NCBI GenBank assembly: GCA_964360245.1
Contig: CAYHWX010000003.1
Coordinates: 2,307-66,306 of the forward strand
Source of the DNA: an uncultured Vicingus sp.
GTDB taxonomy: Bacteria > Bacteroidota > Bacteroidia > Flavobacteriales_E > Vicingaceae
DNA length: 64,000 nucleotides
Direction: 5' to 3'
The notes beneath the pieces are model-generated. The model worked only from the letters and a program-made list of their open reading frames with translations. It was not told the origin of the DNA and ran no database searches. This document shows positions 34,648 through 64,000 of this stretch, piece after piece. The position numbers were made by a program, and so were the translations under genes. Position 1 is the stretch's first letter; the number at the start of each line of letters is the position of its first letter.

Positions 34648-35832
34648 ATGAAGAATCTTAAAGAATTAATTAGTGAGTGTAAAAATTATGCATTCGATTT
34701 GAACTTTTCAAGAGCAAAAGAATGGAAAGAAGAAAAAAAAGGTAGAGTGTTAGTAGGTTATATGCCTATTTACTTTCCAAGAGAAGTTATACATGCTGCA
34801 GGTGCAATGCCAGTTGGAATTTTTGGTGGTGGAGATCGTAAGCAAATTATAAAAGGAGATGCTTATTATCAATCTTACATCTGCCATATACCACGAAGTA
34901 TTATGGAAATAGCTCTCGATAAACAATTAGACCACATTGACGGATTTATCTTTCCTTCTATTTGTGATGTAATCAGAAACCTTTCTGGGATTTTTAAACA
35001 GCAAAAAATTGGGAAGTTTGTAAAATACATGGATTTTCCTCAAAACTTTCTTCCAGAAATTGGAGGAGTGTTCTATCAACAAGAAATGGAGCACGTATTA
35101 AAATACATAAAAGAAATAAACGGTATAGAGGTAACAACTGAGGCATTAAACCATTCAATCGATTTGTACAACAAAAATCGCCAAATGATTGAATTCATTT
35201 ACGATATTCGTCAAAAATTTCCCTGGAGATTGTCTATCGAAGATGTTTATTGCATCGTAAGAGCTGGCACAGTTATTCCTGTTGAAGAACACAACGAAAT
35301 TCTTTCTCAAGTTTGTGAACATATTAAACAAGATATAGGAGTGCCACAAGATAAAATTAAAGTGGTAATATCTGGAGCATTTTGCGAACAACCTGCATTA
35401 GGATTAATCAGAGCTATTGAAGAAGCAGGATGTTATGTGGTTGATGATGATTATATGCTTGGCTCTAGAATGATTTTAGGTGATATAGATGCTACTACCA
35501 ACAAACCTTTAGCGGCAATTGCATGGTCATATATTAAACAAAGTCAGTATTCATCGTCCATCTATGATGTACATAATCCAAAAGAGAATAGATTGGCTAA
35601 AATTGTAAAGGACAGAGGTGCTGATGGAGTAATTTTTGCTGCAGCTAGCTTTTGCGACCCTAGTTTATTAGACGCCCCTATTTTTCATAATGCATTTGAT
35701 AAAATGGGAATACGTTACATCTCCTTCCAATATAGCGAAAACATTAATCAATACAAAGTAATAAAGGAACAAGTGGGGACTTTCTCTGATTCAATAAAAT
35801 TATGGGAAGATGAAACAGTAATAGTTATATAA
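34648..35832 (+). CDS. benzoyl-CoA reductase subunit C-like protein (BcrC/BadD; BCR/2-hydroxyacyl-CoA dehydratase family)
   Basis: 394 aa. GYMPIYFPREVIHAAGAMPVGIFGGGD...QSYICHIPRS...DGFIFPSICDVIRNLSG resembles the BcrC/BadD signature. It is the first gene of a C-B-A-D-ordered quartet. Confidence 0.65.
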   Translation: MKNLKELISECKNYAFDLNFSRAKEWKEEKKGRVLVGYMPIYFPREVIHAAGAMPVGIFGGGDRKQIIKGDAYYQSYICHIPRSIMEIALDKQLDHIDGFIFPSICDVIRNLSGIFKQQKIGKFVKYMDFPQNFLPEIGGVFYQQEMEHVLKYIKEINGIEVTTEALNHSIDLYNKNRQMIEFIYDIRQKFPWRLSIEDVYCIVRAGTVIPVEEHNEILSQVCEHIKQDIGVPQDKIKVVISGAFCEQPALGLIRAIEEAGCYVVDDDYMLGSRMILGDIDATTNKPLAAIAWSYIKQSQYSSSIYDVHNPKENRLAKIVKDRGADGVIFAAASFCDPSLLDAPIFHNAFDKMGIRYISFQYSENINQYKVIKEQVGTFSDSIKLWEDETVIVI

Positions 35833-35871
35833 AAAATATTTATTAAATAGTTTGTGGTGAATAAAGTAAGC

Positions 35872-35906
35872 TAACAAAAAACTCTAAACCTCGAACTCTA
35901 AACTTT
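35872..35906 (+). repeat. 7-nt-phased (A/G/T)AAC-NNN array (5 units) ending 6 nt before the start codon
   Basis: TAACAAA AAACTCT AAACCTC GAACTCT AAACTTT, with units starting at 35872, 35879, 35886, 35893 and 35900. Confidence 0.8.
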
Positions 35907-35911
35907 ATAAT

Positions 35912-37201
35912 ATGGCACAAGAAGCACAAAAAGAAAAGAGCATGGTTCTCCAAAAGGATATGATAAGTTCTCTTTTTAATGACCTTGCTAATGCAAAAGA
36001 ATTAGGTAAAAAAGTTTGTTATACTTTTATTCCTGGGAACCTTTCTGAATTAATTCGAACATTTGATATGCTTCCAGTTTACCCAGAAATTAATGCACTG
36101 CAAAGTGCTATGCGAAAAAAATCAGCAGCATATATTAAAGAAGCAGAAAGAAATGCACATTCTGAGGATGTATGTACTTATGTGAAATGCGATGTAGGAA
36201 TGTTAATGAAAGGAAACATCGGACCAACAGGTGAGAAAATTCCTGAGCCAGATATTCTTTTGTTAAGCTATACGGGATGTTTTACTTTTCTAAAATGGTT
36301 TGAAACCTTAAAAAGAGAATATCCAAATGCAAAAGTGATTATGGTTCATACACCCTATCAAGAGAATGCAGAGATGACTCCTCAAATGACCCAGTATATG
36401 GTTAAACAATTTAAAGAAGAAGTTATTCCTCAAATGGAAGCAGTGACTGGTATTAAATATGACGAGGAAAAATTAAAAAGACACCTAGGATTAGCTGCAG
36501 AAGCTGAAGATTTGATTGCTAAAATATTTGAAACTACAAAACATAGACCATCACCTATTGATGCCTATTTTGCAGGAGTATATTACATTGGTCCAATTAA
36601 TATCGGATTTAGAGGAACTCAACAAGCGGTAGATTACTACAAAGAGTTATTAAAAGAAATTCATATCAGAATAGAAAAAGGACTAGGTCCTATTACTCCA
36701 GAGGGAGAAATGAAAGAAGAAAAATATCGATTGGTTGTTGAAGGACCACCAAACTGGACACATTTCAGAGAATTTTGGAAAATTTTCTATGATATGGGAG
36801 CTGTAATTGTAGCTTCTTCTTATACAAAGGTTGGAGGAGTTTATGATTTAGGATGGAGACACGACCCAGAAAGACCTTTAGAAGCATTAGCTGAATATTG
36901 TATGAATTGTTACACCAATTTAAACATTCCTCAACGAATCAGTTTATTAAAAAAATGTATTGTTGATTATAAAGCTGACGGGTACATTACCAATTCAATT
37001 AAAAGTTGTAATTCTTTTTCAGCAGGGCAATTAGGAATGATGCGTGAAATTGAAGATAGCTTAGAAATACCTGTTGGCTTTATTGAATCTGATTTGGTTG
37101 ACCCACGTTATTTCTCTTATTCAAATATTAAAAATAGGTTAGAATCTTTTTTCCAAATGCTAGAACAGCGTAAAAAAATAGAAGCTAAAGAAACAGTTTA
37201 A
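35912..37201 (+). CDS. benzoyl-CoA reductase subunit B-like protein (BcrB/BadE family)
   Basis: 429 aa. VCYTFIPGNLSELIRTFDMLPVYPEINAL...EDVCTYVKCDVGM is typical of the BCR/HAD core subunit family. Confidence 0.65.
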   Translation: MAQEAQKEKSMVLQKDMISSLFNDLANAKELGKKVCYTFIPGNLSELIRTFDMLPVYPEINALQSAMRKKSAAYIKEAERNAHSEDVCTYVKCDVGMLMKGNIGPTGEKIPEPDILLLSYTGCFTFLKWFETLKREYPNAKVIMVHTPYQENAEMTPQMTQYMVKQFKEEVIPQMEAVTGIKYDEEKLKRHLGLAAEAEDLIAKIFETTKHRPSPIDAYFAGVYYIGPINIGFRGTQQAVDYYKELLKEIHIRIEKGLGPITPEGEMKEEKYRLVVEGPPNWTHFREFWKIFYDMGAVIVASSYTKVGGVYDLGWRHDPERPLEALAEYCMNCYTNLNIPQRISLLKKCIVDYKADGYITNSIKSCNSFSAGQLGMMREIEDSLEIPVGFIESDLVDPRYFSYSNIKNRLESFFQMLEQRKKIEAKETV

Positions 37202-37228: not shown

Positions 37229-38644
37229 ATGAAAAAATATTATTTAGGAATCGATTTAGGCTCAACTACTTCCAAAGCAGTTATCATTAACGAAAATGAT
37301 GAAATTATAGGAAGAGGAATAACTAACACCAGAGCTAATTATAAAGTTGCAGCTGATATAGCTCGTGAAGAAGCTATTTATGATGCTCGTTTTACTTTAT
37401 TAACCAATAAACTTCATGTTGAAATTGACTCTAAACCAGAGTTTAAAAAATACATGAAAGACCTAAGAAGTGTTTTTCAGTATGGACAATTTAAACGAAG
37501 AATGGATAGTTTAGAAAAAACCTTAAAGGAAACAGTTGATTCATACACTTATAGTAATAAAGATCAAGTTGCTAAGGAAATATTTAAGATTATAGAAGTT
37601 ATTCGTCCTCAAATTCGACATGAGTTTGTAAATGAAAACTTAGGATCTAAAAATCAATTTTTTAGAGATATTGTTAGCGAAAGATATAACAGCGAAGTTG
37701 AAAAAGCTGATAAAACACTTTTTGAACCTTTAATGTTAGCTTTTGATAAAAGTATTACTCCTGTAGAAAACGAAATGGTTCAATTTATCTTTAAAGAGTT
37801 AGTTGATGAATCAATGAAAATTCTAGAAGAGAAGTACAAAGGATTGGCTGATCAACCAAATGATGAAAACAAGGAAGATTGGTATTATGCTGAATTAAAC
37901 GCTGTAAAGGATAATTATAAAACTGTTGAAAGTACGCTAAGTAACCATATAGCATCTATTGCAAATGAAGATATTCATATAGCTAATATGGTTGGAACAG
38001 GGTATGGTCGTGCGTTGCTTCCATTTCCTGAAGACTGTATTAAATCTGAAATTCTTTGTCATGCTTTTGGAGCTCACGCTATTTTTCCAAATACTAGAAC
38101 TGTTTTAGATATTGGAGGGCAAGATACCAAAGCCATTCAAGTTGATAGTCACGGCTTAGTAACCAGTTTTCATATGAATGATAGATGTGCTGCAGGTTGT
38201 GGAAGATATTTAGGCTATATTGCCGATGAGTTTGGAATTTCATTAAATGAATTAGGTCCAGAAGCAATGAAATCAGATAAAGAAACAGTAATTTGTTCCA
38301 CTTGTACTGTATTTGCAGGTGCAGAGGTAAAAGAGTTGCTGCACAATGGAGAAGAAAGACCTAATATTTTAGCAGGATTGCATAAATCTATTGTTCAACG
38401 AGCGATGTCTTTAATTGCTCGCTCTGGAGGAGTAAAAAACGAGTTTACCTTCACAGGAGGTGTCGCTCGTAACCAAGCAGTATTAAAGTATGTAAAGCAA
38501 ATGGTTACCGAATCATACGGAGAAGTAACTATGAATATTCATACCGATTCAATATTTATGGGAGCATTGGGTGGAGCTATGTTCGCCTTAAGAAACATTG
38601 ATGTGGATTTGCCAACTAAACAAAAAGAAGAAAAAATAGCATAA
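37229..38644 (+). CDS. BcrA/BadF-like ATPase subunit (BadF/BadG/BcrA/BcrD family, long form)
   Basis: ASKHA N-terminus YYLGIDLGSTTSKAV, followed by a helical insertion of about 170 aa. The cluster-ligand motifs are MNDRCAAGCGRYL and CSTCTVFAGAEV. Confidence 0.7.
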   Translation: MKKYYLGIDLGSTTSKAVIINENDEIIGRGITNTRANYKVAADIAREEAIYDARFTLLTNKLHVEIDSKPEFKKYMKDLRSVFQYGQFKRRMDSLEKTLKETVDSYTYSNKDQVAKEIFKIIEVIRPQIRHEFVNENLGSKNQFFRDIVSERYNSEVEKADKTLFEPLMLAFDKSITPVENEMVQFIFKELVDESMKILEEKYKGLADQPNDENKEDWYYAELNAVKDNYKTVESTLSNHIASIANEDIHIANMVGTGYGRALLPFPEDCIKSEILCHAFGAHAIFPNTRTVLDIGGQDTKAIQVDSHGLVTSFHMNDRCAAGCGRYLGYIADEFGISLNELGPEAMKSDKETVICSTCTVFAGAEVKELLHNGEERPNILAGLHKSIVQRAMSLIARSGGVKNEFTFTGGVARNQAVLKYVKQMVTESYGEVTMNIHTDSIFMGALGGAMFALRNIDVDLPTKQKEEKIA

Positions 38645-38663: not shown

Positions 38664-39518
38664 ATGAGTAGCACTATATATACAATGGGAATCGACGTAG
38701 GTGGAAGTTACGTTAAAGGCGTAATTATGACCTACGACAATGAAACAGGTAATCATAAAATCGTTGATAAACAAACCGAAAAAATTAGAAAAAGAGATCC
38801 AAAAGATGTGGTTGTTGATACGATTGATATGTTATTAGAGCGTAATCATTTAAATTACGATAAAGACATCGCTTATCTTGCTTCCACAGGAGAAGGTGAA
38901 ATGGTTACTAAAAAAACAGGACATTTTTATGGTATGACAACTCACTCACGTGGAGGAATATTTTTTGCACCTGGGGCAAAAACTGTTGTCGATTTGGGAG
39001 GGTTATATGTTAGAGCCATAAAAATTGACGAAAGAGGAAAAGTTATCGATTATAAAATGACTGGTCAATGTGCCTCAGGCTCTGGTCAATTTATTGAAAA
39101 TATATCTAGGTATTTGGGCTTAGCTATTGAAGAAGTTGGTCCAATTTCTTTAAAAGCAGATCACCCAGAAGTACCTTCAGGAATTTGTGCAGTTTTAGCA
39201 GAAACAGATGTAATTAATTTGGTATCGAAAGGACTCTCAACTGCTAATATAGTGAAAGGAATTAATTTATCTATTGCAGGTAGAGCCGTAAAATTATTGG
39301 GAGCTCTTAAAGCAGAATCTCCAATTGCTTTGGTAGGAGGAATGGGAATGAATGTGGGTATGATACAAGCAATTAGAGAGCTATCTCAAGAAAAAGGAAT
39401 TGCAGATTTAGAATTTGTTGCTCATCCTGATGCTATTTATTCTGGTGCTGTTGGTGCTGCTCTTTGGGGAGGTTTTAGATATTATAAATTGAAAGAAAAA
39501 GGTGCTGTGATTGTATAA
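38664..39518 (+). CDS. BcrD/BadG-like ATPase subunit (BadF/BadG/BcrA/BcrD family, short form)
   Basis: 284 aa with MGIDVGGSYVKGV, MTGQCASGSGQFIENI and SGICAVLAETDVI. Confidence 0.7.
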   Translation: MSSTIYTMGIDVGGSYVKGVIMTYDNETGNHKIVDKQTEKIRKRDPKDVVVDTIDMLLERNHLNYDKDIAYLASTGEGEMVTKKTGHFYGMTTHSRGGIFFAPGAKTVVDLGGLYVRAIKIDERGKVIDYKMTGQCASGSGQFIENISRYLGLAIEEVGPISLKADHPEVPSGICAVLAETDVINLVSKGLSTANIVKGINLSIAGRAVKLLGALKAESPIALVGGMGMNVGMIQAIRELSQEKGIADLEFVAHPDAIYSGAVGAALWGGFRYYKLKEKGAVIV

Positions 39519-39542
39519 ATAATAATTCAAATATCTTTATTG

Positions 39543-41678
39543 ATGGAAACAGAAATGAAAAATGAAACAAAAAAAGTAACTGGGGTAACTCATGAATTAG
39601 ATTCTCTTTTCAAACCTAAATCAATTGCCATCATTGGTGCATCATCTAAAGAACTTTCTATAGGAAATGTTATTATCAAAAACTTAGTTCATTTTGGTTA
39701 TACTGGTCCAATCTATCCTATCAATCCGAAAGAACCAGAAATTAGAGGGATTAAAGCCTACCCAACTATATTCGATGTGCCTTATGAGATTGAGGCCGCA
39801 CACATAATCATTCCAAGCAAATTTGTTCCTCAAATAATTGAGGATTGTGGGAAAAAAGGAATAAAATCTGTTATCATCAATTCTGCTGGGTTTAGTGAAA
39901 TGGGCGAAGAAGGAATGGCTTTACAAAAAGCATTTTTAGCAAAAGCAAAAGAATATGGTGTACGTATTTTCGGACCAAATTGTCAGGGAATTATCAATTG
40001 CGACCCTGAATACAATGCCTATTGCGATTTTACTTTTACGTTTCCAAAACCGGGTTCAATTTCAATTGTTGCATTAAGCGGAGGTGTTGGAGCGTTTATT
40101 ATGCAAAGCCTTTTTGATTTAGAAATAGGCATGCGTATGTATGCTTCTAACGGAAATGCCTGCGATGTTTCTATTCCTGATGTGGTAGAATATTACGGTG
40201 AAGACGAAGGAACTAAAGCCATTATTTTATATACAGAAGGATTTTCCAACCCGGCAGCATTTATGGAGGTTGCTAAAAAAGTAGCCAAGAAAAAACCAAT
40301 TCTTGCCATGAAAGCGGGTCGTACCGAAGAAGGTGCAAAAGCTGCGGCTTCACACACAGGCTCATTAGCAGGAGTTGATATCGCAACTGAATTAATTTTT
40401 GAAAAAATAGGCATTCTTACTTTCAATAATGAAGAAGAAATGTGTCAAACTTCCATGGCGTTTGCAACTCAACCTATCCCGAAAGGAAACCGGGTGGGAA
40501 TTATTACCAATACGGGCGGACCCGCAGTTATTGCAACCGACGAATTGGTAAGTGCAGGAATGGTTTTACCTCCGTTATCGGAAAAAGCAAAAAAAGTTTT
40601 AACTGAAACCATGTTGCCAGAAGCGAGCATTAACAATCCTATTGATGTGGTGGCTACTGGTGGTGGACAACATTTTAGAAGTGCGTTAGATGTATTGATG
40701 AACGAAGATACGATTGATTCTATCTACATCAATTTTGTTACTGCACCTTTTACCGATACCGATGAAGTAGCTCGACAAATTGTGGAAGTGAGCAACATGA
40801 AAAAGAAACCGATTGTTTGTAATTTTATGACCAACCAAAGCATGGAGCGTTATCAAATTACCACCAAAATAATGAAAGATGGTGGTGTTCCATGTTATGC
40901 GTTCCCTACTACCGCAGCAAAAGCTTTGGGAGCATTGTACAAATACCATCAAGTGAGTACCCGAAATATTGGTGAAGCAAAAGTTTTTGCAGATGTAAAA
41001 AAAGATAATGCTCTCGCCATCATCAACGAAGCAAAAAAAGAGGGAAAATCTTTCCTTTCTTCTTCTCAGGTTTATAAGTTATTAGCTCAATACGGAATTC
41101 CGGTTGCCGATTGGAGGATAGCCGATTCTATTGATGATGCTGTTAAAGCTGCCGCTGAAATTGGTTTCCCGGTTGTTGTTAAAGCCGATGCCGAATCGTT
41201 GGTTCACAAAAGTGATATGGGCGGAGTTGCCATCAACTTAAAAAATGAAGCAGAAGTTAGAACAGTGGTTGAAAACATGAAAGCCAAATTTAATGCTCCC
41301 GATTTGAAATTCTTTATCCAAAAATTCTTACCCGGAGGCAGAGAATTAATAGCTGGTGTAAGTGCTAAAAAAGATTTAGGGCACTTAATCATGTTTGGTA
41401 TTGGTGGTATTTACGTTGAAGTACTGAAAGATGTAGTTTTTAAAATTGCACCAGTTACTGAAGTTGAAGCCAACGAAATGCTTACCAAAATTAAAGCAGC
41501 AAAATTATTAGATGGCGTTCGTGGAGAAAAAGGAATTGATAAAAAAAGTGTTATTGAAATTATTCAACGGTTATCGCAATTAGTTGTCGATTTACCAATG
41601 ATTCAAGAAATGGATTTAAACCCCATCATGGCTTTTGAAGATAAAGCTTTTGTGGTGGATGCTAGAATTAAAATTTGA
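39543..41678 (+). CDS. NDP(ADP)-forming acyl-CoA synthetase, fused alpha-beta (acetate--CoA ligase family)
   Basis: N-terminal CoA-binding domain (KSIAIIGASSK), phospho-His loop AASHTGSLAG and a C-terminal ATP-grasp domain. The track start 39540 is a TTG; the ATG is at 39543. Confidence 0.8.
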   Translation: METEMKNETKKVTGVTHELDSLFKPKSIAIIGASSKELSIGNVIIKNLVHFGYTGPIYPINPKEPEIRGIKAYPTIFDVPYEIEAAHIIIPSKFVPQIIEDCGKKGIKSVIINSAGFSEMGEEGMALQKAFLAKAKEYGVRIFGPNCQGIINCDPEYNAYCDFTFTFPKPGSISIVALSGGVGAFIMQSLFDLEIGMRMYASNGNACDVSIPDVVEYYGEDEGTKAIILYTEGFSNPAAFMEVAKKVAKKKPILAMKAGRTEEGAKAAASHTGSLAGVDIATELIFEKIGILTFNNEEEMCQTSMAFATQPIPKGNRVGIITNTGGPAVIATDELVSAGMVLPPLSEKAKKVLTETMLPEASINNPIDVVATGGGQHFRSALDVLMNEDTIDSIYINFVTAPFTDTDEVARQIVEVSNMKKKPIVCNFMTNQSMERYQITTKIMKDGGVPCYAFPTTAAKALGALYKYHQVSTRNIGEAKVFADVKKDNALAIINEAKKEGKSFLSSSQVYKLLAQYGIPVADWRIADSIDDAVKAAAEIGFPVVVKADAESLVHKSDMGGVAINLKNEAEVRTVVENMKAKFNAPDLKFFIQKFLPGGRELIAGVSAKKDLGHLIMFGIGGIYVEVLKDVVFKIAPVTEVEANEMLTKIKAAKLLDGVRGEKGIDKKSVIEIIQRLSQLVVDLPMIQEMDLNPIMAFEDKAFVVDARIKI

Positions 41679-41704: not shown

Positions 41705-41725
41705 GCCACACCTTTATTGTGTGGC
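41705..41725 (+). other. hairpin GCCACAC-cctttatt... GTGTGGC in the spacer after the acyl-CoA synthetase gene
   Basis: 7-bp G/C-containing stem with a 7-nt loop, flanked by a 5-bp outer stem (AGTTC/GAACT). No U-tract follows. Confidence 0.35.
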
Positions 41726-41751
41726 GTATCGAGAACTTAAAAATAAAAACT

Positions 41752-54624: not shown

Positions 54625-55745
54625 AAATTGAACAAAAAGAGAATCAACTTATTATGAATGGTTCTGAATTGATAATAGAATCATTAGCTAGGTCTGGTGC
54701 AGACGTTTTTATCGGTTACCCTATTACACCTGCAAACCTTCTATATTCTTATTCAAAAGAACGCTTCCCTTCTTTTTTTGCAGCACCTGATGAAATTTCT
54801 ACACTTCAATGGATGTGTGGTTTTTCAACTACTGGGAAATTTCCTGTAACTGCTACATCATTTCCAGGTTTTGCCTTAATGATTGAATCGATAAACATGG
54901 CATATATGATGGAATTGCCCATGTTAATCGTTCTCGTTCAGAGACTTGGACCAGCAACTGGCAGTGCGACATGTGGTGCACAAGGTGATTTAGCTATGCT
55001 TACTGGTGCAATATCTGGTGGATTTTCTCTGCCAGTTATTAGTGTAAGTAACATGAAAGATTGTTGGGATTTATCAAACAAAGCAATGAAAATGGCTATT
55101 GATTTGAGAACTCCAGTTGTTTTACTTACTTCCAAAGAAGAAATAATGACGCTATCAAGTTTTGCTATTTCACAACTTCAAGAACTAACAATTATTGAAC
55201 GAAAACAGTATTCTTCTACTGAAATATTTGTGCCATATAAAATTAATAAATCACTTGTTCCTGAATTTTTACCTGTGGGCGATACAAAACATCAAGTTCG
55301 ATTTACTGCATCAACACATGATCAAAAAGGAATTATTCAAAACACTTCAAAAGAAGCAATTGAAAATACTAAACGATTAGAACTCAAACATCTTCTCAAC
55401 CTCGAAAATCATTTATATTACGAATACGATGCTCAAACTGGTGCAGATACACTTTTAATTTCATATGGAATCACAGCTTCATCTGGTAGAGAAGCAGTTA
55501 GAAATTTAAGAGAAAAAGGTGAAAAAATTTCACATTTAATACCAAAAACCTTGTTGCCAGTTCCTCCTATCTATTTTGATATTATGGATAAATATAAAAA
55601 CATAGTGATTGCCGAAGAAAACCTTTCTGGTCAATATAAAAAGATTTTGTTTGGAGAATTTGGGAATAAAAAAGTTTGTGGTGTTAATGGAATTGCAGAA
55701 ATGATTACTCCATCAAAAATAATGGAAGAAATTTTAGCTAAATAA
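54621..55745 (+). CDS. 2-oxoacid:ferredoxin oxidoreductase alpha subunit (KorA/OorA-like, without gamma domain)
   Basis: NGSELIIESLARSGADVFIGYPITPAN...FPGFALM...GPATGSAT. The start overlaps the ACAD stop (ATGA). Confidence 0.75.
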   Translation: MKIEQKENQLIMNGSELIIESLARSGADVFIGYPITPANLLYSYSKERFPSFFAAPDEISTLQWMCGFSTTGKFPVTATSFPGFALMIESINMAYMMELPMLIVLVQRLGPATGSATCGAQGDLAMLTGAISGGFSLPVISVSNMKDCWDLSNKAMKMAIDLRTPVVLLTSKEEIMTLSSFAISQLQELTIIERKQYSSTEIFVPYKINKSLVPEFLPVGDTKHQVRFTASTHDQKGIIQNTSKEAIENTKRLELKHLLNLENHLYYEYDAQTGADTLLISYGITASSGREAVRNLREKGEKISHLIPKTLLPVPPIYFDIMDKYKNIVIAEENLSGQYKKILFGEFGNKKVCGVNGIAEMITPSKIMEEILAK

Positions 55746-55765
55746 TTTGATTTATTACTGTGGAA

Positions 55766-57097: not shown

Positions 57098-58498
57098 ATG
57101 AGTCAGTTAAAATCATACGGAATTGCTTTGCCTCATTTTAGGATTGAGGACGCCATTCTTCACCCAAAAGGAAAGAAAAGTATTACTAAATCAGTTTGTT
57201 TCGCTGATGAAGATTTGATTACACTTGCTTTTCAGGCAGCAGCAAACTTGAAACTTGAAACATTAAACTCTAAACCGGATGGTGTCCTATTTGCAACATC
57301 AACTTCAGTTTTTACCAACCGCTATCATGCTTCTTTTTTAGCAGATTTATTAAATCTTCCGCAGGGAATTTTAGCTCTTGATTTTACCAACTCAACTCGT
57401 AGTGGAACTGATGCCTTTTTATTGGCAAATACCTTGATTGATTCTGGAAAATACAAAAACATATTAGTTGTAGCTGCTGATGTTCATTTTCCTGCTATCG
57501 GAAAAGAACTTTCGACTACTTTCGGTCATGCTGCTTGTGCAATATTATTAAGCAATGAAAAAGGGATTGCAGAAATTACAGAAGCAAAATCTTACAGTTC
57601 TTCACTGGCTGAAGAGTTTTCTTACAAAGGAAATAATATTCAATACGACCCACGATTTAGTCGTGATGCAGGGTTTAAAACCAATTTGACTTCTTCACTA
57701 AAAGATTTTATTACCAATCCAAAACAGTATGATGCAGTCATTCTAAATTCACTTTATGCTCGAATGGCAGGAGGAATATTTGCAAAAGCAGGTTTTGAAG
57801 AAACACAATTTGCAAAAGATACACTCTCGTCTAAAATTGGAAATACAGGTGCTGCTCATGCATTGTTGTTACTCATTAATGAATTGGAATCAACTCCCTT
57901 CCCGAAGGGAAGGATCGGGGATGGGCTTATTTTGTTAGCTGATTACACCAATGGAACAAACTTTTTTGAAATTAAAACTCATGAAACTAATCATGAAAAA
58001 ACATTACAGAATCAATTAAAAAACAACGAATTAATTCAAACCTATCAGGATTATTTATTGTTACGTAAAGCTGGAAATTTCAAATCAGCAAAATACAAAA
58101 CCAAAGAAATGTTCTCATCAGAAATGATGCAAGAGCGTGAAAAAGACACTTTACAATATTTGAAAGGATTAAAATGTGATGAATGCGGAACAATATATTA
58201 TTTAAAATCGACTCGTTGTAAAAAATGTAAAGCCGATAAATTCTCAGAAGTTCAATTATCATCGACAGGAACTGTATATACCTTAACAAGCGAACATTAT
58301 TTTCCGAGTTCATTTCCTCCAATTCACATGTTGGTAATTGATTTGGATGGCGGTGGAAGGGTTACTGTTCAGCAAACGGACACGATGTATCCAGAAAACA
58401 ATAAAATTGAAATCGGCTCAAAAGTGAAACTAGTATTACGAAAAATGATTGAAAACGACGAAAAACCAAATTATTTCTGGAAAGCAATACCATTATGA
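57098..58498 (+). CDS. HMG-CoA-synthase-like thiolase-fold domain fused to a DUF35 (Zn-ribbon + OB-fold) domain
   Basis: The N-terminal roughly 330 aa align by eye to archaeal-type HMGCS (SYGIALPHFRI, ADEDLITLAFQAA, IGNTGAAHALLLL). The C-terminus has CDECGTIYYLKSTRCKKC plus an OB-like segment. Confidence 0.6.
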   Translation: MSQLKSYGIALPHFRIEDAILHPKGKKSITKSVCFADEDLITLAFQAAANLKLETLNSKPDGVLFATSTSVFTNRYHASFLADLLNLPQGILALDFTNSTRSGTDAFLLANTLIDSGKYKNILVVAADVHFPAIGKELSTTFGHAACAILLSNEKGIAEITEAKSYSSSLAEEFSYKGNNIQYDPRFSRDAGFKTNLTSSLKDFITNPKQYDAVILNSLYARMAGGIFAKAGFEETQFAKDTLSSKIGNTGAAHALLLLINELESTPFPKGRIGDGLILLADYTNGTNFFEIKTHETNHEKTLQNQLKNNELIQTYQDYLLLRKAGNFKSAKYKTKEMFSSEMMQEREKDTLQYLKGLKCDECGTIYYLKSTRCKKCKADKFSEVQLSSTGTVYTLTSEHYFPSSFPPIHMLVIDLDGGGRVTVQQTDTMYPENNKIEIGSKVKLVLRKMIENDEKPNYFWKAIPL

Positions 58499-59682
58499 AA
58501 AGACAAAACGACATAGCAATAATAGGCATAGGTGTTACCAAGTTTGGTGAACTTTTTCATCAAAGTTACGATGATTTAGTTCGTGATGCAGCAAAACAAG
58601 CGGTAACTGATGCTAAAATTTCAATGGATGAAATTGGTGCGGCTTGGCTTTCAACTGCATTTCCAGAGATTGGCGTTTTTAAAGGCAGAAGTGGAATGGA
58701 TTTGTCTGAGCCACTTTCTTTGTACAATATTCCTGTAACACGAGTTTCCAATTTTTGTGCGTCAGGGGCTGATGCAATTCGAAACGCAGTTAATGCTCTA
58801 CGTGCTGGCGAATGTGATGTGGCAATGGCTTTAGGAGTTGAAAAACTTCGTGATCGTCAACCACAAGATAGTATCGTTAAAATGATGGTTGAATACGGAC
58901 ATCCATTTTTGCAAAAAGGGTTTACTGCAGCAGGCACATTTGCTGTTTATGCTAACCGAATGATGAAAGAATATGGTTTAACACGGGAAGATATTTCAAA
59001 TGTTTCTGTAAAAAATCACTTGCATGGTGCTATGAATGAAAAAGCATTTTATCGTAAACCTTGCTCTTTAGAAGAAGTCATGAAATCGCCAATGGTTGCC
59101 GACCCACTTACTGTTTTGGATAGTTGTCCGACAACTGATGGTGCTGCTTGTGTAATAATGGTTCGTGCAGAAGATGTGGATAAAACAAAACATCATCCAA
59201 TTTATATTGACGGAATAGGCTTGTCAGTTTCTACAGGTTGGGATTTACCTTTTTTCGACCCCAACCACGATTTTCTTTCTTTTGAAGCAACACGTAATGC
59301 AGCAAAAATGGCTTATCAACAGGCTGGAATTACCAAACCAATTGATGAAATTGATTTGGTAGAAGTGCATGACTGTTTTTCAATAGTCGAATTGTTGACT
59401 TATGAAGATTTGGGTTTATGTAAATCAGGCGAATCGAAAGACATGATACGAGGAAAAGCAACTCATTTAGGAGAACAAATTCCTGTAAACGTGAGTGGAG
59501 GGTTGCTTTCTTGTGGGCATCCAGTTGGTTCAACGGGAATAAGAATGGTGGTTGAAATTGCCAATCACCTTCGTGGAACAGCTGGTGAACGCCAAGTAAA
59601 AGGTGCAAAAAGAGGTCTGTCTCACAATATTGGTGGTCCAGGAGCAATTGCTTCTGTGATTGTCTTAAATAATGAAAATTAA
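58495..59682 (+). CDS. thiolase (SCP-x/archaeal acetoacetyl-CoA thiolase-like)
   Basis: VSNFCASGADAIRNA (active-site Cys) and C-terminal HDCF, SGGLLSCGHPVGSTG. The start overlaps the upstream stop (ATGA). Confidence 0.85.
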   Translation: MKRQNDIAIIGIGVTKFGELFHQSYDDLVRDAAKQAVTDAKISMDEIGAAWLSTAFPEIGVFKGRSGMDLSEPLSLYNIPVTRVSNFCASGADAIRNAVNALRAGECDVAMALGVEKLRDRQPQDSIVKMMVEYGHPFLQKGFTAAGTFAVYANRMMKEYGLTREDISNVSVKNHLHGAMNEKAFYRKPCSLEEVMKSPMVADPLTVLDSCPTTDGAACVIMVRAEDVDKTKHHPIYIDGIGLSVSTGWDLPFFDPNHDFLSFEATRNAAKMAYQQAGITKPIDEIDLVEVHDCFSIVELLTYEDLGLCKSGESKDMIRGKATHLGEQIPVNVSGGLLSCGHPVGSTGIRMVVEIANHLRGTAGERQVKGAKRGLSHNIGGPGAIASVIVLNNEN

Positions 59683-59693: not shown

Positions 59694-60677
59694 ATGACAA
59701 ATAAAAAAACAATCAAATTAGCAATTTTAGTATTGCTTTCATTCGTTTCGTCTTTTGGCTTTTCTCAAGTTGAACCTGAAAATGGTAGTGTTTCAATAAC
59801 ACCTACTGTAAATTCCGATAATGGGAATACAGAAACTAGACACATATTTAAGCGAAAAGGAAATTTATATTTCTATTGGGGCTACCCAAAAGCTTATTTT
59901 AGCAAAAGTGATATTCATTTAACTGGAGACATATATGATTTTACAATTACCGACATAACAGCGACAAGTGATCAAGTAAAGCATGATTTTACTACTTACA
60001 TTAATCCTGGCACATTCAGTATCCCAATGTTTAACTGGAGAGTCGGATATTTTATTAATGACAAAACGTTTTTAACATTTGGGCATGATCATATGAAATA
60101 TGGCATGGATAAACAAGCAACATATCTTACTGGAGAAATTACTAGTGGAGAATTCATGGGTACTTATGATAATACTATGGTCGTTGTTGGGGAGGAATCT
60201 GAGGAGTCAGTTCTTCATACCGACGATTTGGACTCTTTACCTGGTGAATTTGTTGAAGAATTTGAACATTGTGATGGATTAAATGATTTTGGATTTGAAA
60301 TAGGACGTTTGGAGCAATTTTGGATTTCAAAAAATGGTAAAAATGCTCTCTCAGCTCAAGGTACATTTGGTTTGGGTATGATGATTCCGGATTCGGAAGT
60401 AGAAGTACTCGAACGAGAACCAAAACATAACAATGACGAAGGAAGAAAATCGTTTCATTTAGCAGGATACAGTATTTCTGCAAGTGTTGGGTTACAAGTT
60501 GATTTTTTTAAACACTTTTTTATTTTGGGAAAACTAAAAGCAGGATACATCAATATGCCTGACATCAATACATCTCTTGAAGGAGGGAAAGCAAGTCAAC
60601 ATTTTAATTTTCTAGAGCCTATTCTTGCTGTTGGGTATTCAGGCTGTATTAGCAGAAAGAAAAAAGAAAATAAATAA
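59694..60677 (+). CDS. hypothetical exported protein, possibly outer membrane
   Basis: Signal peptide MTNKKTIKLAILVLLSFVSSFGFSQ. No family recognised. Confidence 0.5.
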   Translation: MTNKKTIKLAILVLLSFVSSFGFSQVEPENGSVSITPTVNSDNGNTETRHIFKRKGNLYFYWGYPKAYFSKSDIHLTGDIYDFTITDITATSDQVKHDFTTYINPGTFSIPMFNWRVGYFINDKTFLTFGHDHMKYGMDKQATYLTGEITSGEFMGTYDNTMVVVGEESEESVLHTDDLDSLPGEFVEEFEHCDGLNDFGFEIGRLEQFWISKNGKNALSAQGTFGLGMMIPDSEVEVLEREPKHNNDEGRKSFHLAGYSISASVGLQVDFFKHFFILGKLKAGYINMPDINTSLEGGKASQHFNFLEPILAVGYSGCISRKKKENK

Positions 60678-60704: not shown

Positions 60705-61082
60705 ATGAAAGTATTATTAAGTAAACCTGGATTAGACGGACACGATGTAGGAGTTAAAGTTCTTGCACATGGCTTAATTGAAGCCGATTTTGAAGTAGTT
60801 TATACTGGATTGAGAAAAACCATTGATGAAATCGTGCAAATGGCAATAGAAAATAAAGTAGATGTCATTGGACTGTCTATTCTTTCAGGAACACATTTAT
60901 TTCTTGCTCAGAAAATGAAAGAAGTAATGGATGCAAATAAACTAGATATTCCTTGGTTTGTTGGAGGAAATGTCCCACCTCTAGACGTTGCAAAATTGGA
61001 AAAAATTGGTGCTTCAAAAGCTTTCGCAACAAGCACAAAAGTGGTTGATGTAGTTAATTATTTTAAAGAAATGAAAAAGTGA
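60705..61082 (+). CDS. B12-binding small subunit of an acyl-CoA mutase
   Basis: 125 aa with the DxHxxG motif (GLDGHDVGVKVL) and the Rossmann-like cobalamin-binding fold pattern. Confidence 0.8.
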   Translation: MKVLLSKPGLDGHDVGVKVLAHGLIEADFEVVYTGLRKTIDEIVQMAIENKVDVIGLSILSGTHLFLAQKMKEVMDANKLDIPWFVGGNVPPLDVAKLEKIGASKAFATSTKVVDVVNYFKEMKK

Positions 61083-61135: not shown

Positions 61136-62761
61136 ATGAATACAAAAAATAAAATAAAACATACCGCCGAAGATTTAGGGGTAAAGAAAGTTTACCTTGA
61201 ATCGGGCATTGAAGTAAATCCTATTTATACTGCTGAAGATGTAGAAAACTCGAACAGCAAACACGAAATGCCAGGCGAATACCCTTTTACAAGAGGAATT
61301 CATAACACCATGTATCGTAAAAGACCTTTTACTATTCGTCAGTATGCTGGATTTGCATCTCCGGAAGAAACTAATGAACGTTTTCAATTTTTAATTGCCA
61401 ACGGACAATCAGGGTTAAATGTTGCTTTCGATTTACCAACACAATGTGGATTGGATTCTGATGACCCAAGAGCGATGGGTGAGGTTGGTCGTGTTGGAAT
61501 GACCGTTGACACGCTCGATGATTTTGAAATTGCTTTTAAGAATATTGATTTAGATAAGATTACAGTTTCATTAACTATCAACGGTTCTGCAATTATTGCT
61601 ATTGCTATGTATATTGCGATGGCAGAAAAAGCTGGTTATGACATTAGTAAATTAAGAGGAACGGCTCAAAATGATATTTTAAAAGAGTTTATTGGTCGTG
61701 GAACTTGGATTTTTCCAGTTGACAAATCAGTAAAATTGGTTGTTGATACCATAGAATATTGTGCTCAACATGTTCCAAAATATAGTCCGGTAAGTGTTTG
61801 TGGATATCACATTAGAGAAAGTGGAGCTAACCCCATTCAAGAAATGGCGTATGCATTTTGTATCGCAAAAGCATATACCGATGGAGCATTAAGTAGAGGA
61901 ATTGATATTGATGATTTTGCATCTCGACTATCATTTAACTTCGATATTTATGGAAATTTATTTGAGCAAATTGCCAAGTTTAGAGGCGGAAGAAGATTGT
62001 GGGCAAAAATAATTCGCGAAGAATATTTAGCCAAAAATGATGATTCGTGTTGGTTAAGAATGATTGCCGGAGGTGGCGGTGGTGGTTTAACCAAAGAACA
62101 ACCAGAAAACAACATTGTAAGAAGTGCTTATTATGCCTTAATAAGTGCGTTGTCTGGAACTCAAACGATGGCATTGTGTAGTTATGATGAAGCCTACACC
62201 ATTCCCACAGAACACTCTGCAGAAATCTCCTTAAGAACCATGCAAATTATGATTCACGAAATGGGAATTTGCGATACCGTTGACCCACTTGGCGGTTCTT
62301 ATTATGTGGAAGCATTAACCGACAAATTTGAAGAAGAAATTAAAAAAGAAATGAAAATGGTGGATAAATGGGGCGGAATTGTGAATGCTGTTGCAACTGG
62401 AAAAATTCAAGAATCTGTTTCTAAACAAGCTTACACACGAGAAATGGGAATGCAAACCGGGAAAGTGGATAAAGTAGGTGTAAATATTTTTACCAGAGAA
62501 GAAGAAAGTAAACCCGTTGAATTCCATCCTTATAATCAGGAAGCTGCCGACAAGCAAGTAGAAAAATTAAAACGAATTAAAGCATCAAGAAACAATGAAT
62601 TGGTAAAACAAAAATTAGATACCATCAGAAAAGATGCAAAAGAAGATAAAAACCTTATGCCTTCAATTATTGAAGCAGTAAAAGAATATGCAACAGTTGG
62701 TGAGATTGTTCAAGTAATGAAAGATGTTTATGGTGAATTTAAAGAGCCTATCTTTTTTTAA
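61136..62761 (+). CDS. acyl-CoA mutase large (catalytic TIM-barrel) subunit, methylmalonyl-CoA mutase family
   Basis: PFTRGIHNTMYRKRPFTIRQYAGF...GQSGLNVAFDLPTQCGLDSD...AQNDILKEFIGRGTWIFP. Substrate specificity is not callable by eye. Confidence 0.85.
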   Translation: MNTKNKIKHTAEDLGVKKVYLESGIEVNPIYTAEDVENSNSKHEMPGEYPFTRGIHNTMYRKRPFTIRQYAGFASPEETNERFQFLIANGQSGLNVAFDLPTQCGLDSDDPRAMGEVGRVGMTVDTLDDFEIAFKNIDLDKITVSLTINGSAIIAIAMYIAMAEKAGYDISKLRGTAQNDILKEFIGRGTWIFPVDKSVKLVVDTIEYCAQHVPKYSPVSVCGYHIRESGANPIQEMAYAFCIAKAYTDGALSRGIDIDDFASRLSFNFDIYGNLFEQIAKFRGGRRLWAKIIREEYLAKNDDSCWLRMIAGGGGGGLTKEQPENNIVRSAYYALISALSGTQTMALCSYDEAYTIPTEHSAEISLRTMQIMIHEMGICDTVDPLGGSYYVEALTDKFEEEIKKEMKMVDKWGGIVNAVATGKIQESVSKQAYTREMGMQTGKVDKVGVNIFTREEESKPVEFHPYNQEAADKQVEKLKRIKASRNNELVKQKLDTIRKDAKEDKNLMPSIIEAVKEYATVGEIVQVMKDVYGEFKEPIFF

Positions 62762-62765
62762 GAAC

Positions 62766-63959
62766 ATGAAAAAACAAAAAATCATATTATCCCTCGAACA
62801 AGCACTTGCATTACCTTATGCAACACAACGTTTTGTACAATTAGGTTGGCGTGTAATTCGTATTGAATCCCCTGCAGAAGATGGCGAAAACGCTGGAGAC
62901 CCAAACCGATACATTGGTGCCGATTTAGGTTTTAGCGATTTACATTCATATTATATTGCACCAAATACTGGTAAAGAAGCCATCACCATTAATCTGAAAA
63001 AAAAGGAAGGACAAGAGTTACTTAAAAAATTAATTAAGGAATTGGATGTTGATGTATTTATGTGCAACACCTTGCCCAAACGCTACAAACAACTAGGCAT
63101 CGATTATGAAACATTAAAAGAAGCAAACCCTGATATTATTTGGTGCAGTATTTCTGCAATGGGTCCGGAATATCCGGAAAGAGCAGGTTATGACCCCGCT
63201 TTACAAGCCATGATGGGTTTTACTTACCTTACCGGAGAACCTAACGGCTTACCTGTTCCTTGCGGCATCCCAATCATTGATTTAAAGGCTGGTGATGAAG
63301 CTTTTACTCAAGTGGTTCTTGCAATGTTGGAGAGTAATACCAACAAGGAAATTCACATTTCAATGGCACAATGTGCGGCAAGTTGGTTGATAACCGCTTT
63401 ACCACAATTAGCATTTGTAAAAAACGAAAGTGAATTATTTACTCGCAGTGGAAATGAGCACCGAAGTTTTATCCCTTGCAACGCATATCCCACAAAAGAT
63501 GGTTATCTCTATTTAGCCATAGGTAACGATTTGCAATGGCACAAATTTGTTTCTCACAAAGGGTTTGAAAAACTTTTTTCGGAAAATCGTAAAACAAACG
63601 AGGGAAGGATGAAGGAAAAAGAAAACATTTATAAAGAAATAGGAGAATTAAGTAAAAACTATAGCACCAAAGAATTTTTCGAGTTATGCATTTCCTTAAA
63701 TCTATCAGCAGCTCCCGTAAATACTGTTAAAGAAGTCGCTTTATTGCCATTTGTTGATGTTTGTATGATGAAAACAACAATTCCGAACGGTAAAGAAGTG
63801 AAACTTTCTCCTCCATCATACAATACAGCATTTCTTGAAAAAAATAATTTTTCGTTGAATTGTCCACCACGATTAGGAGAACAAAACAATAAAGTATATC
63901 AACAAATTGGAATTACCGAAAAGGAAATAGAAAAAATGGTAGCCGAAAAAATAATTTAA
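62766..63959 (+). CDS. family III CoA-transferase (CaiB/BaiF/Frc type)
   Basis: ALPYATQRFVQLGWRVIRIESPAEDGENAGDPNR. The ATG at 62766 avoids the overlap created by the track start 62724. Confidence 0.8.
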   Translation: MKKQKIILSLEQALALPYATQRFVQLGWRVIRIESPAEDGENAGDPNRYIGADLGFSDLHSYYIAPNTGKEAITINLKKKEGQELLKKLIKELDVDVFMCNTLPKRYKQLGIDYETLKEANPDIIWCSISAMGPEYPERAGYDPALQAMMGFTYLTGEPNGLPVPCGIPIIDLKAGDEAFTQVVLAMLESNTNKEIHISMAQCAASWLITALPQLAFVKNESELFTRSGNEHRSFIPCNAYPTKDGYLYLAIGNDLQWHKFVSHKGFEKLFSENRKTNEGRMKEKENIYKEIGELSKNYSTKEFFELCISLNLSAAPVNTVKEVALLPFVDVCMMKTTIPNGKEVKLSPPSYNTAFLEKNNFSLNCPPRLGEQNNKVYQQIGITEKEIEKMVAEKII

Positions 63960-64000
63960 TGATAAAAAAAACAATCGACATATTAACTTCTTATTCAGCA
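63959..64000 (+). CDS. start of a further gene in the same operon direction (14 codons, truncated by the window end)
   Basis: The ATG overlaps the preceding stop (TAATG). Translation is MIKKTIDILTSYSA.... Function unknown. Confidence 0.3.
   Translation, partial: MIKKTIDILTSYSA

Follow-up and report, generated by a model that had tools for sequence, protein, structure and literature searches.

Two anaerobic routes for aromatic compounds, the class I benzoyl-CoA reductase (BCR) pathway and the pathway degrading the auxin indoleacetate (iaa), are the described systems closest to the genes considered here, and experimental knowledge of both comes from Proteobacteria and a few strict anaerobes. 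In Thauera aromatica, the former comprises bcrCBAD, dch, had, oah, korAB and fdx, with KorAB reducing the ferredoxin donor. The latter reportedly includes a molybdenum hydroxylase step, which Ebenau-Jehle is said to have described in 2012. In class I BCRs, three Cys of the B/O subunit hold a [4Fe-4S] cluster and six of the C/N subunit a [8Fe-9S] cluster (PMC11971306). The iaa set of Aromatoleum consists of the ligase IaaB, a hydantoinase-type 2-oxoindoleacetyl-CoA gamma-lactamase, IaaL, IaaGH and IaaF (PMC8360864, PMC5214803). IaaF accepts benzylmalonyl-CoA and some alkylmalonyl-CoAs, and the motif GGG instead of YEG is diagnostic of this subclass, the benzylmalonyl-CoA dehydrogenases; its named orthologues include none from Bacteroidota, their sources being Aromatoleum, Rhodopseudomonas, Ferroglobus, strain NaphS2, Desulfocarbo and Thermoplasmatales (PMC8360864). 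Here, we describe a block of 22 genes in 64,000 nucleotides of an uncultured Vicingus sp. (Bacteroidota, Vicingaceae; contig CAYHWX010000003.1, positions 2,307 to 66,306; the whole stretch is hereafter called the window). To judge from its sequence and gene order, this block is probably a composite island, a Bacteroidota version of the Thauera-type benzoyl-CoA pathway with an inserted iaa-type module, oxygen-sensitive and probably linked to nitrate.

The block (34648-63959, ca. 29 kb, GC content of 30-38%) contains 22 complete open reading frames (ORFs), named g01 to g22 (Table 1), all on the + strand. The ATG at 63959 opens one more + strand frame, a 14-codon stub running to the window end, and the ORF listing gave no long competing - strand ORF between 34648 and 64000. 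This is the layout described in the original prediction, made from the letters and ORFs of the window, and its three overlaps are real (ATGA at 54621, ATGA at 58495 and TAATG at 63957). From g01 to g22 the spacers measure 79, 27, 19, 21, 40, 4, 23, 32, 129, 11, 7, 29, 86, -4, 14, 3, -4, 11, 27, 53 and 4 nt, i.e., from -4 to 129 nt, and the most likely start of the CoA-transferase g22 is 62766 (397 aa, as in homologues), not the longest-ORF ATG at 62724. Domains were called with Pfam and NCBIfam profiles, using equivalog cut-offs, and PDB chains were compared by phmmer. The gene content listed in the original prediction held throughout, with three calls sharpened: the partner domain of the “fused activase” belongs to the ketopantoate reductase (KPR) family, the “DUF35 partner” of the thiolase combines DUF35 with a PhlA/HMGS-like domain in one chain, and the 2-oxoacid oxidoreductase consists of an alpha subunit and a beta-gamma fusion.

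A scan of genomes with g08 as the seed located relatives in 149 stretches, and 80 loci were kept for synteny, analyzed by tblastn and de novo gene families. The upstream counts given below refer to the 51 loci that reach 8 kb or more upstream of g08, and the downstream counts to the 53 that do so downstream. The relatives are mostly Bacteroidota metagenome-assembled genomes (MAGs), the closest being those of Vicingus, Vicingaceae and Flavobacteriales (88-90% identity), and extend to Saprospiraceae, Chitinophagaceae, Ignavibacteria and Chlorobiota. Look-ups of the exact g02, g21 and g22 sequences in the public index gave no match. Conserved synteny, which the original prediction had left to be sought in other genomes, was thus found, with the same gene orders in dozens of species-level genomes, and such recurrence indicates that the arrangement of the block is not due to chance.

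The first four genes follow the C-B-A-D order of Thauera and code for two HGD-D-family subunits and two BcrAD-family ATPase subunits; both BcrC and BcrB pass their equivalog cut-offs (Table 1). On these same two proteins, the HadC and HadB models score far below theirs (174 vs 700 and 189 vs 750 bits), and the nearest PDB chain to BcrB is MbdO (208.6 bits). In the orthologue alignment, Cys88, Cys123 and Cys366 of BcrB are invariant, the three Cys expected for the catalytic [4Fe-4S] cluster, as are Cys79, Cys106, Cys246, Cys262 and Cys336 of BcrC, in which Cys11 is found in 44/46 orthologues; this 3+3 pattern fits an [8Fe-9S] site. These matches were made by alignment position alone, with the ligand numbers taken from PMC11971306. 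Since gene order, equivalog or best-match models and Cys pattern all fit, g01-g04 are predicted to encode a Thauera-type ATP-dependent class I BCR.

The dominant order among the 80 loci is (MocA-like)-bcrC-bcrB-bcrA-bcrD, AMP-forming ligase (family F10) or g05, g06, (g07), g08, thiolase (F5), F3, F6 and F9. Upstream of g08, we found bcrC in 48 loci, bcrB in 48, bcrA in 49, and bcrD and g06 in 50 each; the CoA-activating slot is filled by F10 in 37 loci and by g05 in 13, the window being one in which the ADP-forming synthetase g05 occupies the slot of the AMP-forming ligase. F3 is 6-hydroxycyclohex-1-ene-1-carbonyl-CoA dehydrogenase (Had; TIGR03201, 450 bits, cut-off 339) and F6 is 6-oxocyclohex-1-ene-1-carbonyl-CoA hydrolase (Oah; TIGR03200, 599 bits, cut-off 464), while F9 has dienoyl-CoA hydratase (Dch) as its best match, at 217 bits, below the cut-off of 292. 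Downstream of g08, had and oah were each present in 45 loci, the dch-like gene in 44 and korAB in 16, the last being a two-subunit 2-oxoacid:acceptor oxidoreductase of the KorAB type (F17/F16). Some loci add a fusion of 3-hydroxyacyl-CoA dehydrogenase (HCDH) and enoyl-CoA hydratase (ECH) and F17-F16 after F9, and some a molybdenum enzyme resembling 4-hydroxybenzoyl-CoA reductase. The differences from Thauera are the Bacteroidota host, the lack of a ferredoxin gene nearby, the extra conserved pair g06/g08, a ligase in the relatives outside the benzoate-CoA ligase family (TIGR02262, 110 bits vs a cut-off of 375) with an ADP-forming synthetase in the window, and an oxidoreductase (g15/g16) made in the window of an alpha subunit and a beta-gamma fusion.

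The window ends before the genes for the later steps of this pathway, and the nearest relatives indicate where they lie. The 14-codon stub (MIKKTIDILTSYSA) matches, in 13 of its 14 residues, the N-terminus of a 1133-aa protein of locus L082 (11194-14595), which is related to the alpha subunit (IorA) of indolepyruvate:ferredoxin oxidoreductase (IOR). In L081, L082 and L165 the CoA-transferase gene is followed by this IorA fusion, IorB, a three-subunit molybdenum hydroxylase, a HisC-type aminotransferase, a thiolase, had, oah and dch. The subunits of the hydroxylase are of the [2Fe-2S], molybdopterin and FAD types, the nearest model being 4-hydroxybenzoyl-CoA reductase alpha (568 bits). The fusion of L082 reaches 574 bits with the IOR_alpha model (cut-off 651), and the IOR_beta model gives 137 bits for IorB (cut-off 206), both below. 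L165, found by a thiolase search on the same 182-kb contig as L003, has a copy of g22 96% identical to that of the window; its Had, Oah and Dch are 85%, 82% and 87% identical to the family representatives used as queries, and unrelated genes follow. There, had/oah/dch start ca. 10.3 kb past the g22 stop, and everything from IOR to dch lies within ca. 14 kb. By analogy, the window genome would carry had/oah/dch at ca. 74-78 kb, with the molybdenum hydroxylase before them. As a side observation, an IOR with an IorA-like thiamine diphosphate-binding subunit fused to a GltD-like NAD(P)H/Fe-S/flavin module has an unusual architecture; in L165 the fusion is split into two ORFs. A metagenome scan seeded with the downstream aminotransferase yielded three loci that were close but short, along with many unrelated homologues of HisC, and no downstream extension.

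From g09 onward the block resembles the iaa operon of Aromatoleum aromaticum and A. evansii. A gamma-lactamase of the hydantoinase type, a split B12 mutase (IaaGH), a CoA-transferase (IaaL) and a GGG dehydrogenase (IaaF) are common to both, in the relatives a molybdenum hydroxylase is found downstream, and the output would go to the benzoyl-CoA pathway. The likeness of the mutase, the transferase and the lactamase is at the family level only. The dehydrogenase g14 reads RFTLIGGGTSEIL where a YEG motif would be expected; the GGG is invariant in its orthologues. Among sampled single-domain representatives of 50% clusters, all six with at least 42% identity to g14 have GGG, and those below 42% have mostly YEG, AGT or GGT variants, with a few more GGG. 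Cluster membership of the GGG-type representatives gave no link to the named Aromatoleum proteins, and a tblastn search of plasmids with g14 recovered generic acyl-CoA dehydrogenases of at most 40% identity and no iaa-like plasmid cluster.

Judged by PMC5214803 and gene context, g10/g11 are predicted to be the 2-oxoindoleacetyl-CoA gamma-lactamase; the best NCBIfam match of g10 is caprolactamase alpha (658 bits) and g11 gives 392 bits with caprolactamase beta, both below cut-offs of 1000. These two genes were also considered as an acetone or acetophenone carboxylase and rejected, as the models score low, there is no gamma subunit and the context is iaa-like. With 523 bits on the methylmalonyl-CoA mutase equivalog, g21 falls short of the cut-off of 876, as expected for a mutase of another substrate, and a role of g20/g21 in propionate metabolism as methylmalonyl-CoA mutase was discarded because the equivalog is not reached. 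Homologues of g22 are 395-401 aa long, and this protein reaches no equivalog. In every module copy seen, the RidA gene g13 comes after hydB and before the IaaF-like gene.

The thiolase g18 has a partner in g17, whose nearest PDB chains are PhlA, an archaeal DUF35 protein and BbsA. Similar arrangements are the PhlACB complex, the archaeal thiolase/HMGCS/DUF35 complex and the benzoylsuccinyl-CoA thiolase BbsAB, which share with g17/g18 a PhlA/HMGS-like part, DUF35 and an SCP-x-type thiolase (g18 scores 192 bits with the BbsB model). The differences are that in g17 the PhlA-like and DUF35 parts form one chain, the KAS/HMGS nucleophile position reading NSTRSG, without Cys, and that the predicted substrate is 2-aminobenzoylacetyl-CoA. 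Thus, g17 looks like a non-catalytic partner of g18, which would be a 2-aminobenzoylacetyl-CoA thiolase.

In the window and in L003, L014, L037, L042 and L050, the genes after g08 are g09-g10-g11-g13-g14-g17-g18, in place of the thiolase of the dominant order. L081 and L082, found through g22 homologues, have hydA-hydB-RidA-acyl-CoA dehydrogenase, the PhlA/DUF35 gene, thiolase, B12 small subunit, mutase and CoA-transferase. In the MAG JAPLDA01 the module stands alone on contig 7 (L163), opening with a g09-like gene and including a 2-oxoacid oxidoreductase, and the bcr cluster lies on contig 9 (L080); since they are on different contigs, the two modules are separable. Compared with the iaa operon, neither the AMP-forming ligase IaaB nor the binding protein or the iaa regulators are seen in the block, and the module is physically inserted in a bcr cluster. 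The block and its relatives appear to add a RidA, an HCDH-ECH fusion, the PhlA/DUF35-thiolase complex, a 2-oxoacid oxidoreductase, the IOR-GltD-like fusion and an aminotransferase, additions that suggest an entry from tryptophan.

The 2-oxoacid oxidoreductase g15/g16, likely ferredoxin-reducing, overlaps the dehydrogenase gene g14 by ATGA in the window. Its slot between the IaaF-like gene and the PhlA/DUF35 gene (54621-57094) is also filled in L163 (8776-11320), in L164 (7683-10233) and in an ENA contig, and the enzyme is missing from the nearest relatives L081, L082, L003 and L014. We know of no established electron acceptor of IaaF, so the adjacency of g14 and g15/g16 is of possible interest.

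The family assignments, the GGG motif, the synteny and the modularity allow us to propose a working scheme, in which the substrates, the order of the steps and the roles of RidA, g05, g15/g16 and g06/g08 are putative. Tryptophan would be converted to indolepyruvate by the aminotransferase encoded just downstream, and the IOR would give indoleacetyl-CoA, which g05 may alternatively supply from indoleacetate. The molybdenum hydroxylase encoded beyond the window end would produce 2-oxoindoleacetyl-CoA, and g10/g11 would open its ring at the expense of ATP to (2-aminophenyl)succinyl-CoA. After a shift of CoA on this compound by g22, the B12 mutase g20/g21 would form (2-aminobenzyl)malonyl-CoA, which g14 would decarboxylate oxidatively to 2-aminocinnamoyl-CoA; g09 together with g17/g18 would then release acetyl-CoA and 2-aminobenzoyl-CoA. 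The ring of the latter would be reduced by g01-g04, with g15/g16 probably supplying reduced ferredoxin, and the product would go on through had, oah and dch. More speculatively, RidA may hydrolyze the imine tautomer arising from the reduction of 2-aminobenzoyl-CoA by BCR, giving the Oah substrate directly. In this arrangement, the iaa-type module would have been inserted between g08 and the thiolase-had-oah-dch part of the benzoyl-CoA cluster.

Several observations weigh against a composite island of this kind. All the sequences behind it belong to uncultured MAGs. Within the reductase, g03 reaches 431 bits in two stretches against a cut-off of 578, and g04 stays slightly below its own (299.8 vs 312.85 bits). 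The proteins g10/g11, g21 and g22 are below every equivalog cut-off, the putative Iaa orthology of the module is based on one motif, family membership and gene context, and it is only provisionally that RidA, the fused HMGS/DUF35 protein, the oxidoreductase and the IOR fusion count as additions to the published iaa operon. Between 34 and 64 kb, a domain search found no AMP-binding gene (IaaB-type indoleacetate-CoA ligase) and a motif scan no ferredoxin gene, as the original prediction had said; in place of the former there are the synthetase g05 and g07, a leftover ligase domain. Finally, the molybdenum hydroxylase and had/oah/dch are placed outside the window, from relatives at 88-97% identity. 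Together with the genes below cut-offs and with g06/g08 and RidA, which have no assigned step, the absence of dch, had, oah, an AMP-forming ligase and a ferredoxin gene within 34648-64000 would also suit one coherent undescribed pathway, oxygen-sensitive and specific for an aromatic, alicyclic or N-containing acid, in which carboxylase/lactamase, mutase and RidA replace Dch, Had and Oah. Along these lines, the original prediction held that the layout matched no described pathway and that Dch, Had and Oah were missing. Both claims are largely refuted, and we consider the idea distinctly improbable: the “unusual” lactamase, mutase, CoA-transferase and dehydrogenase are the set that defines iaa, the GGG dehydrogenase included (PMC8360864, PMC5214803), had/oah/dch follow g22 on the same contig in the nearest relative (L165) and had and oah come after g08 in 45/53 loci, and the two modules are apart in JAPLDA01. 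What the original prediction guessed of the chemistry fared better, as bcrCBAD and the iaa-type module fit an oxygen-sensitive aryl-CoA theme, and the iaa-type enzyme set an N-containing aromatic acid.

The substrate of the module could be a different one, with the chemistry still iaa-like, such as another lactam or arylsuccinate-type compound (oxindole or quinolinone derivatives, phenylsuccinate or benzylmalonate analogues). The lactamase subunits are indeed nearest to caprolactamase models, though below cut-off, the molybdenum enzyme to 4-hydroxybenzoyl-CoA reductase and xanthine dehydrogenase models, IaaF takes benzylmalonyl-CoA and some alkylmalonyl-CoAs (PMC8360864), and no IaaB-type ligase is present. 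However, an IOR (below its cut-offs) and an aminotransferase, which would make indoleacetyl-CoA from tryptophan, are embedded in the module in L081, L082, L163 and L165, and no described pathway fits the gene set better, so that we regard another substrate as unlikely. Least credible of all, indeed very hard to sustain, is that the HGD-D and activase genes are 2-hydroxyacyl-CoA dehydratases (HAD) of amino acid fermentation, within a fermentative acyl-CoA cluster. All three HGD-D proteins do match HadB/HadC models, g06 being nearest to HadB, g08 has a domain resembling 2-oxoacid reductases, and an acyl-CoA dehydrogenase and a CoA-transferase are present. Against it, g01 and g02 pass the BcrC and BcrB equivalogs and fall far short of HadC and HadB, the C-B-A-D order with two ATPase subunits is a BCR architecture, had, oah and dch co-localize with the bcr genes, and the respiratory context with nar and cbb3 genes speaks against a fermenter. 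The composite island of benzoyl-CoA and iaa-type genes therefore remains our preferred reading.

The benzoyl-CoA clusters of these bacteria contain a pair of genes, g06 and g08, absent from the Thauera pathway. A lone subunit of the HAD/BCR family, g06 has HadB (3o3m) as its best PDB match (169.5 bits), followed by MbdO (126 bits). In the alignment, the catalytic [4Fe-4S] ligands correspond to Cys97, Cys136 and Cys364 of g06; its Cys48 and Cys307 are invariant as well, and its Cys394 occurs in 67/68 orthologues. The g06 gene was found beside g08 and bcrCBAD in 50/51 loci, and no beta-type HGD-D partner stands beside it in ca. 70 loci. The N-terminal part of g08 passes TIGR00745 (168.6 bits, cut-off 141.35) and matches KPR-family chains, including 3wfi, which we take to be D-mandelate dehydrogenase; the C-terminal part passes TIGR00241 (173.1 bits, cut-off 125.4) and matches the HadI activator 4eht. 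The systems to compare are HadBC/HadI of Clostridioides difficile and the phenyllactate dehydratase FldBC/FldI, with which the pair shares the likeness of g06 to HadB with its three cluster Cys, that of the C-terminal half of g08 to HadI, and the presence beside g06 of a KPR-family 2-oxoacid reductase domain and a CoA-activating enzyme. It differs in having no beta (HadC-type) subunit, in the fusion of the reductase to the activase, in the ligase or synthetase in place of a CoA-transferase, in three extra conserved Cys in g06 and in the linkage to bcrCBAD. The other comparison is DCCP with its DCCP-R, which likewise consists of a single HGD-D-type subunit with its own single-domain activase-type ATPase and has six conserved Cys. 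Nevertheless, g06 scores 58 bits with NF040772 (cut-off 350), for which DCCP was rejected, gives no phmmer match to 6eno, and has its extra Cys at positions other than those of the [8Fe-9S] ligands in BcrC. With regard to 2-hydroxyacyl-CoA dehydratases, the pair has the three Cys and the activase and lacks the heterodimer. Failing both the DCCP model and the heterodimeric structure of HAD enzymes, g06 was placed in neither family.

We tentatively suggest that g06/g08 are a new kind of HAD/BCR-family system, with a lone alpha subunit and a KPR-fused activase, as a conserved, uncharacterized pair integral to the benzoyl-CoA clusters of Bacteroidota, Ignavibacteriota and Chlorobiota. Their function might be that of a feeder, i.e., with the ligase or synthetase they may convert an arylpyruvate to (R)-aryllactate, aryllactyl-CoA and a cinnamoyl-type enoyl-CoA, beta-oxidation then giving (hydroxy)benzoyl-CoA. 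This possibility, doubtful as it is, was favored because the ligase-g06-g08 trio has all four functions required to go from a 2-oxoacid to an enoyl-CoA; if true, it would be an undescribed route from phenylalanine and tyrosine to the ring reductase. The competing proposal is a second, DCCP-like ATP-driven reductase for substituted benzoyl-CoA, e.g., 2-aminobenzoyl-CoA, and we know of no deaminating reductase of this compound that has been identified. Between the two genes, g07 appears to be a leftover C-terminal domain of an AMP-forming ligase, 40% identical (E value of 6e-35) to residues 428-571 of ligase F10. As read, uncounted, from the gene-order strings, it lies next to g05 in most loci with the ADP-forming synthetase, and for this reason it looks functional rather than a decaying remnant. 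The region shared by g07 and F10 includes a CFCPR...GRCLTGC cysteine motif.

Table 1. Genes of the block, the regulator gene before it and the gene begun at the window end, with their predicted products (positions in the window).
Gene	Predicted product	Position	Strand	Domains, models and remarks
	Crp/Fnr-family regulator, possible regulator of the block	33567..34274	+	cNMP_binding + HTH_Crp_2; directly upstream of g01
g01	BcrC, benzoyl-CoA reductase subunit C (BzdN/HadC-type)	34648..35832	+	TIGR02263 426.2 bits > cut-off 421.15; 394 aa
g02	BcrB, catalytic subunit B	35912..37201	+	TIGR02260 635.9 bits > cut-off 486.55; 429 aa
g03	BcrA, ATPase subunit	37229..38644	+	TIGR02259 best match; BcrAD_BadFG domain; 471 aa with insertion
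g04	BcrD, ATPase subunit	38664..39518	+	TIGR02261 best match; 284 aa
g05	ADP-forming (NDP-forming) acyl-CoA synthetase	39540..41678	+	CoA_binding, Succ_CoA_lig, ATP-grasp_5
g06	Lone alpha-type HAD/BCR-family Fe-S subunit	41719..42987	+	Full-length HGD-D domain
g07	Free-standing C-terminal domain of AMP-forming ligase	42992..43456	+	154 aa; no Pfam/NCBIfam match
g08	Ketopantoate-reductase-family domain (residues 1-315) + HAD/BCR activase (residues 350-600)	43480..45348	+	ApbA, ApbA_C, BcrAD_BadFG
g09	3-Hydroxyacyl-CoA dehydrogenase + enoyl-CoA hydratase fusion	45381..47399	+	3HCDH_N + ECH_1; first gene of stand-alone module L163
g10	Hydantoinase-A-type subunit, ATP-dependent lactamase	47529..49685	+	Hydant_A_N, Hydantoinase_A, Hydant_A_C
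g11	Hydantoinase-B-type lactamase subunit	49697..51373	+	Hydantoinase_B 471 bits
g12	Beta-propeller protein sorted by the type IX secretion system (T9SS)	51381..52976	+	Por_Secre_tail domain
g13	RidA-family imine/enamine deaminase	53006..53410	+	Ribonuc_L-PSP domain
g14	IaaF-like decarboxylating (2-aminobenzyl)malonyl-CoA dehydrogenase	53497..54624	+	All three acyl-CoA dehydrogenase domains; GGG motif
g15	2-Oxoacid:acceptor oxidoreductase, alpha subunit	54621..55745	+	POR_N + PFOR_II
g16	2-Oxoacid oxidoreductase, beta-gamma fusion	55760..57094	+	TPP_enzyme_C + POR; fusion widespread in Bacteroidota
g17	PhlA/HMGS-like domain fused to DUF35	57098..58498	+	ACP_syn_III, zf-ChsH2, OB_ChsH2_C
g18	SCP-x/archaeal-type thiolase	58495..59682	+	Thiolase_N + Thiolase_C_1; PRK06157 406.9 bits, cut-off 403
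g19	Exported 327-aa protein, optional member	59694..60677	+	No family match (Pfam/NCBIfam); signal peptide by eye
g20	B12-binding small subunit of acyl-CoA mutase (IaaH-like)	60705..61082	+	B12-binding domain; TIGR00640 107 bits
g21	Acyl-CoA mutase large subunit (IaaG-like)	61136..62761	+	MM_CoA_mutase 632 bits; TIGR00641 606 bits
g22	Family III CoA-transferase (IaaL-like arylsuccinyl-CoA transferase)	62766..63959	+	CoA_transf_3
	IorA-like + GltD-like fusion, first 14 codons	63959..64000	+	MIKKTIDILTSYSA

Two genes of the block code for exported proteins. The T9SS-sorted protein g12 is absent from every relative examined (L003, L014, L081, L082 and L163) and is probably a lineage-specific insertion, outside the pathway. 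In one ENA contig the slot of g19 holds a 319-aa gene, matched by position and size only, and g19 is absent from L081 and L082. The view of the 2-oxoacid oxidoreductase, the T9SS protein and g19 as unique insertions was therefore only partly true, given that other module copies also have the first and that, in one of them, the g19 slot is filled by a gene of comparable size. Unusual loci were also seen among the relatives. In L030 and L033, Bacteroidota-like bcr-g06-g08 clusters with a g08 of 70-72% identity occur in MAGs labelled as Competibacteraceae (Gammaproteobacteria) and Bifidobacterium, which points to mis-binned contigs or horizontal transfer. L022 (10001-13106) is the sole locus in which g08 and the thiolase are present and the 10 kb upstream contain neither bcrCBAD nor g06; this copy is rearranged or decayed.

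The surroundings of the block agree with the original prediction, which had seen a Bacteroidota-type genome with an FNR-like regulator gene and nar genes next to the cluster: the nearest relatives are Vicingus, Vicingaceae and Flavobacteriales MAGs, the Crp/Fnr-family gene directly precedes g01 (best NCBIfam match Fnr, 107.8 bits, below the cut-off of 228), and NarG, NarH and NarI are encoded at 18433-25282. In all, three Crp/Fnr-family genes, two MFS transporters, NarG/H/I, a cbb3 oxidase (CcoN-CcoO fusion) and FixG are found upstream. The respiratory island (11478-13616, 14472-15905, 17535-25282 and 27191-28607) comprises the CcoN-CcoO fusion, FixG, a cytochrome c, NarG/NarH/NarI, a hemerythrin-domain protein and the third cNMP-binding regulator, and homologues of the genes at 22144-25282 (NarH, an unassigned 216-aa ORF and NarI) flank the bcr cluster in L021 and L025. 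A scan for sigma-70 promoters and terminators gave no enrichment (66 sites vs 75 expected, and 13 vs 11), with a model that is not valid for Bacteroidota promoters, and no TAnnTTTG boxes were found in the spacers of the block. There is, however, a heptad-like leader motif, AACTCTAAAC (AAACTCT/G repeats), present in 25 copies vs 7.0 +/- 2.9 expected, at 35880-35903, 45341-45371, 47512-47521, 49657-49687, 52992-53001, 53459-53489 and 61096-61133. Most of the + strand copies fall within or border the spacers that immediately precede g02, g09, g10, g11, g13, g14 and g21, and L003, L082, L042 and L081, all close relatives, have the same motif in their spacers. Its role may be that of a signal for translation or processing specific to this lineage.

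The block is real and conserved, with probably two described pathways juxtaposed in a new phylum and with variant parts, namely the ADP-forming synthetase, the entry through IOR and aminotransferase, the RidA, the fused thiolase partner and the g06/g08 pair, the latter a worthwhile target for biochemistry. For annotation, a lactamase, a mutase and a family III CoA-transferase found with a GGG-type acyl-CoA dehydrogenase can be taken as the mark of an iaa-type module. Many uncultured Bacteroidota and their relatives would share the benzoyl-CoA/iaa machinery as a conserved, modular island next to nitrate reductase genes, and its gene content suggests that common Flavobacteriales of freshwater, groundwater and sediments may mineralize benzoate, tryptophan and auxin without oxygen.

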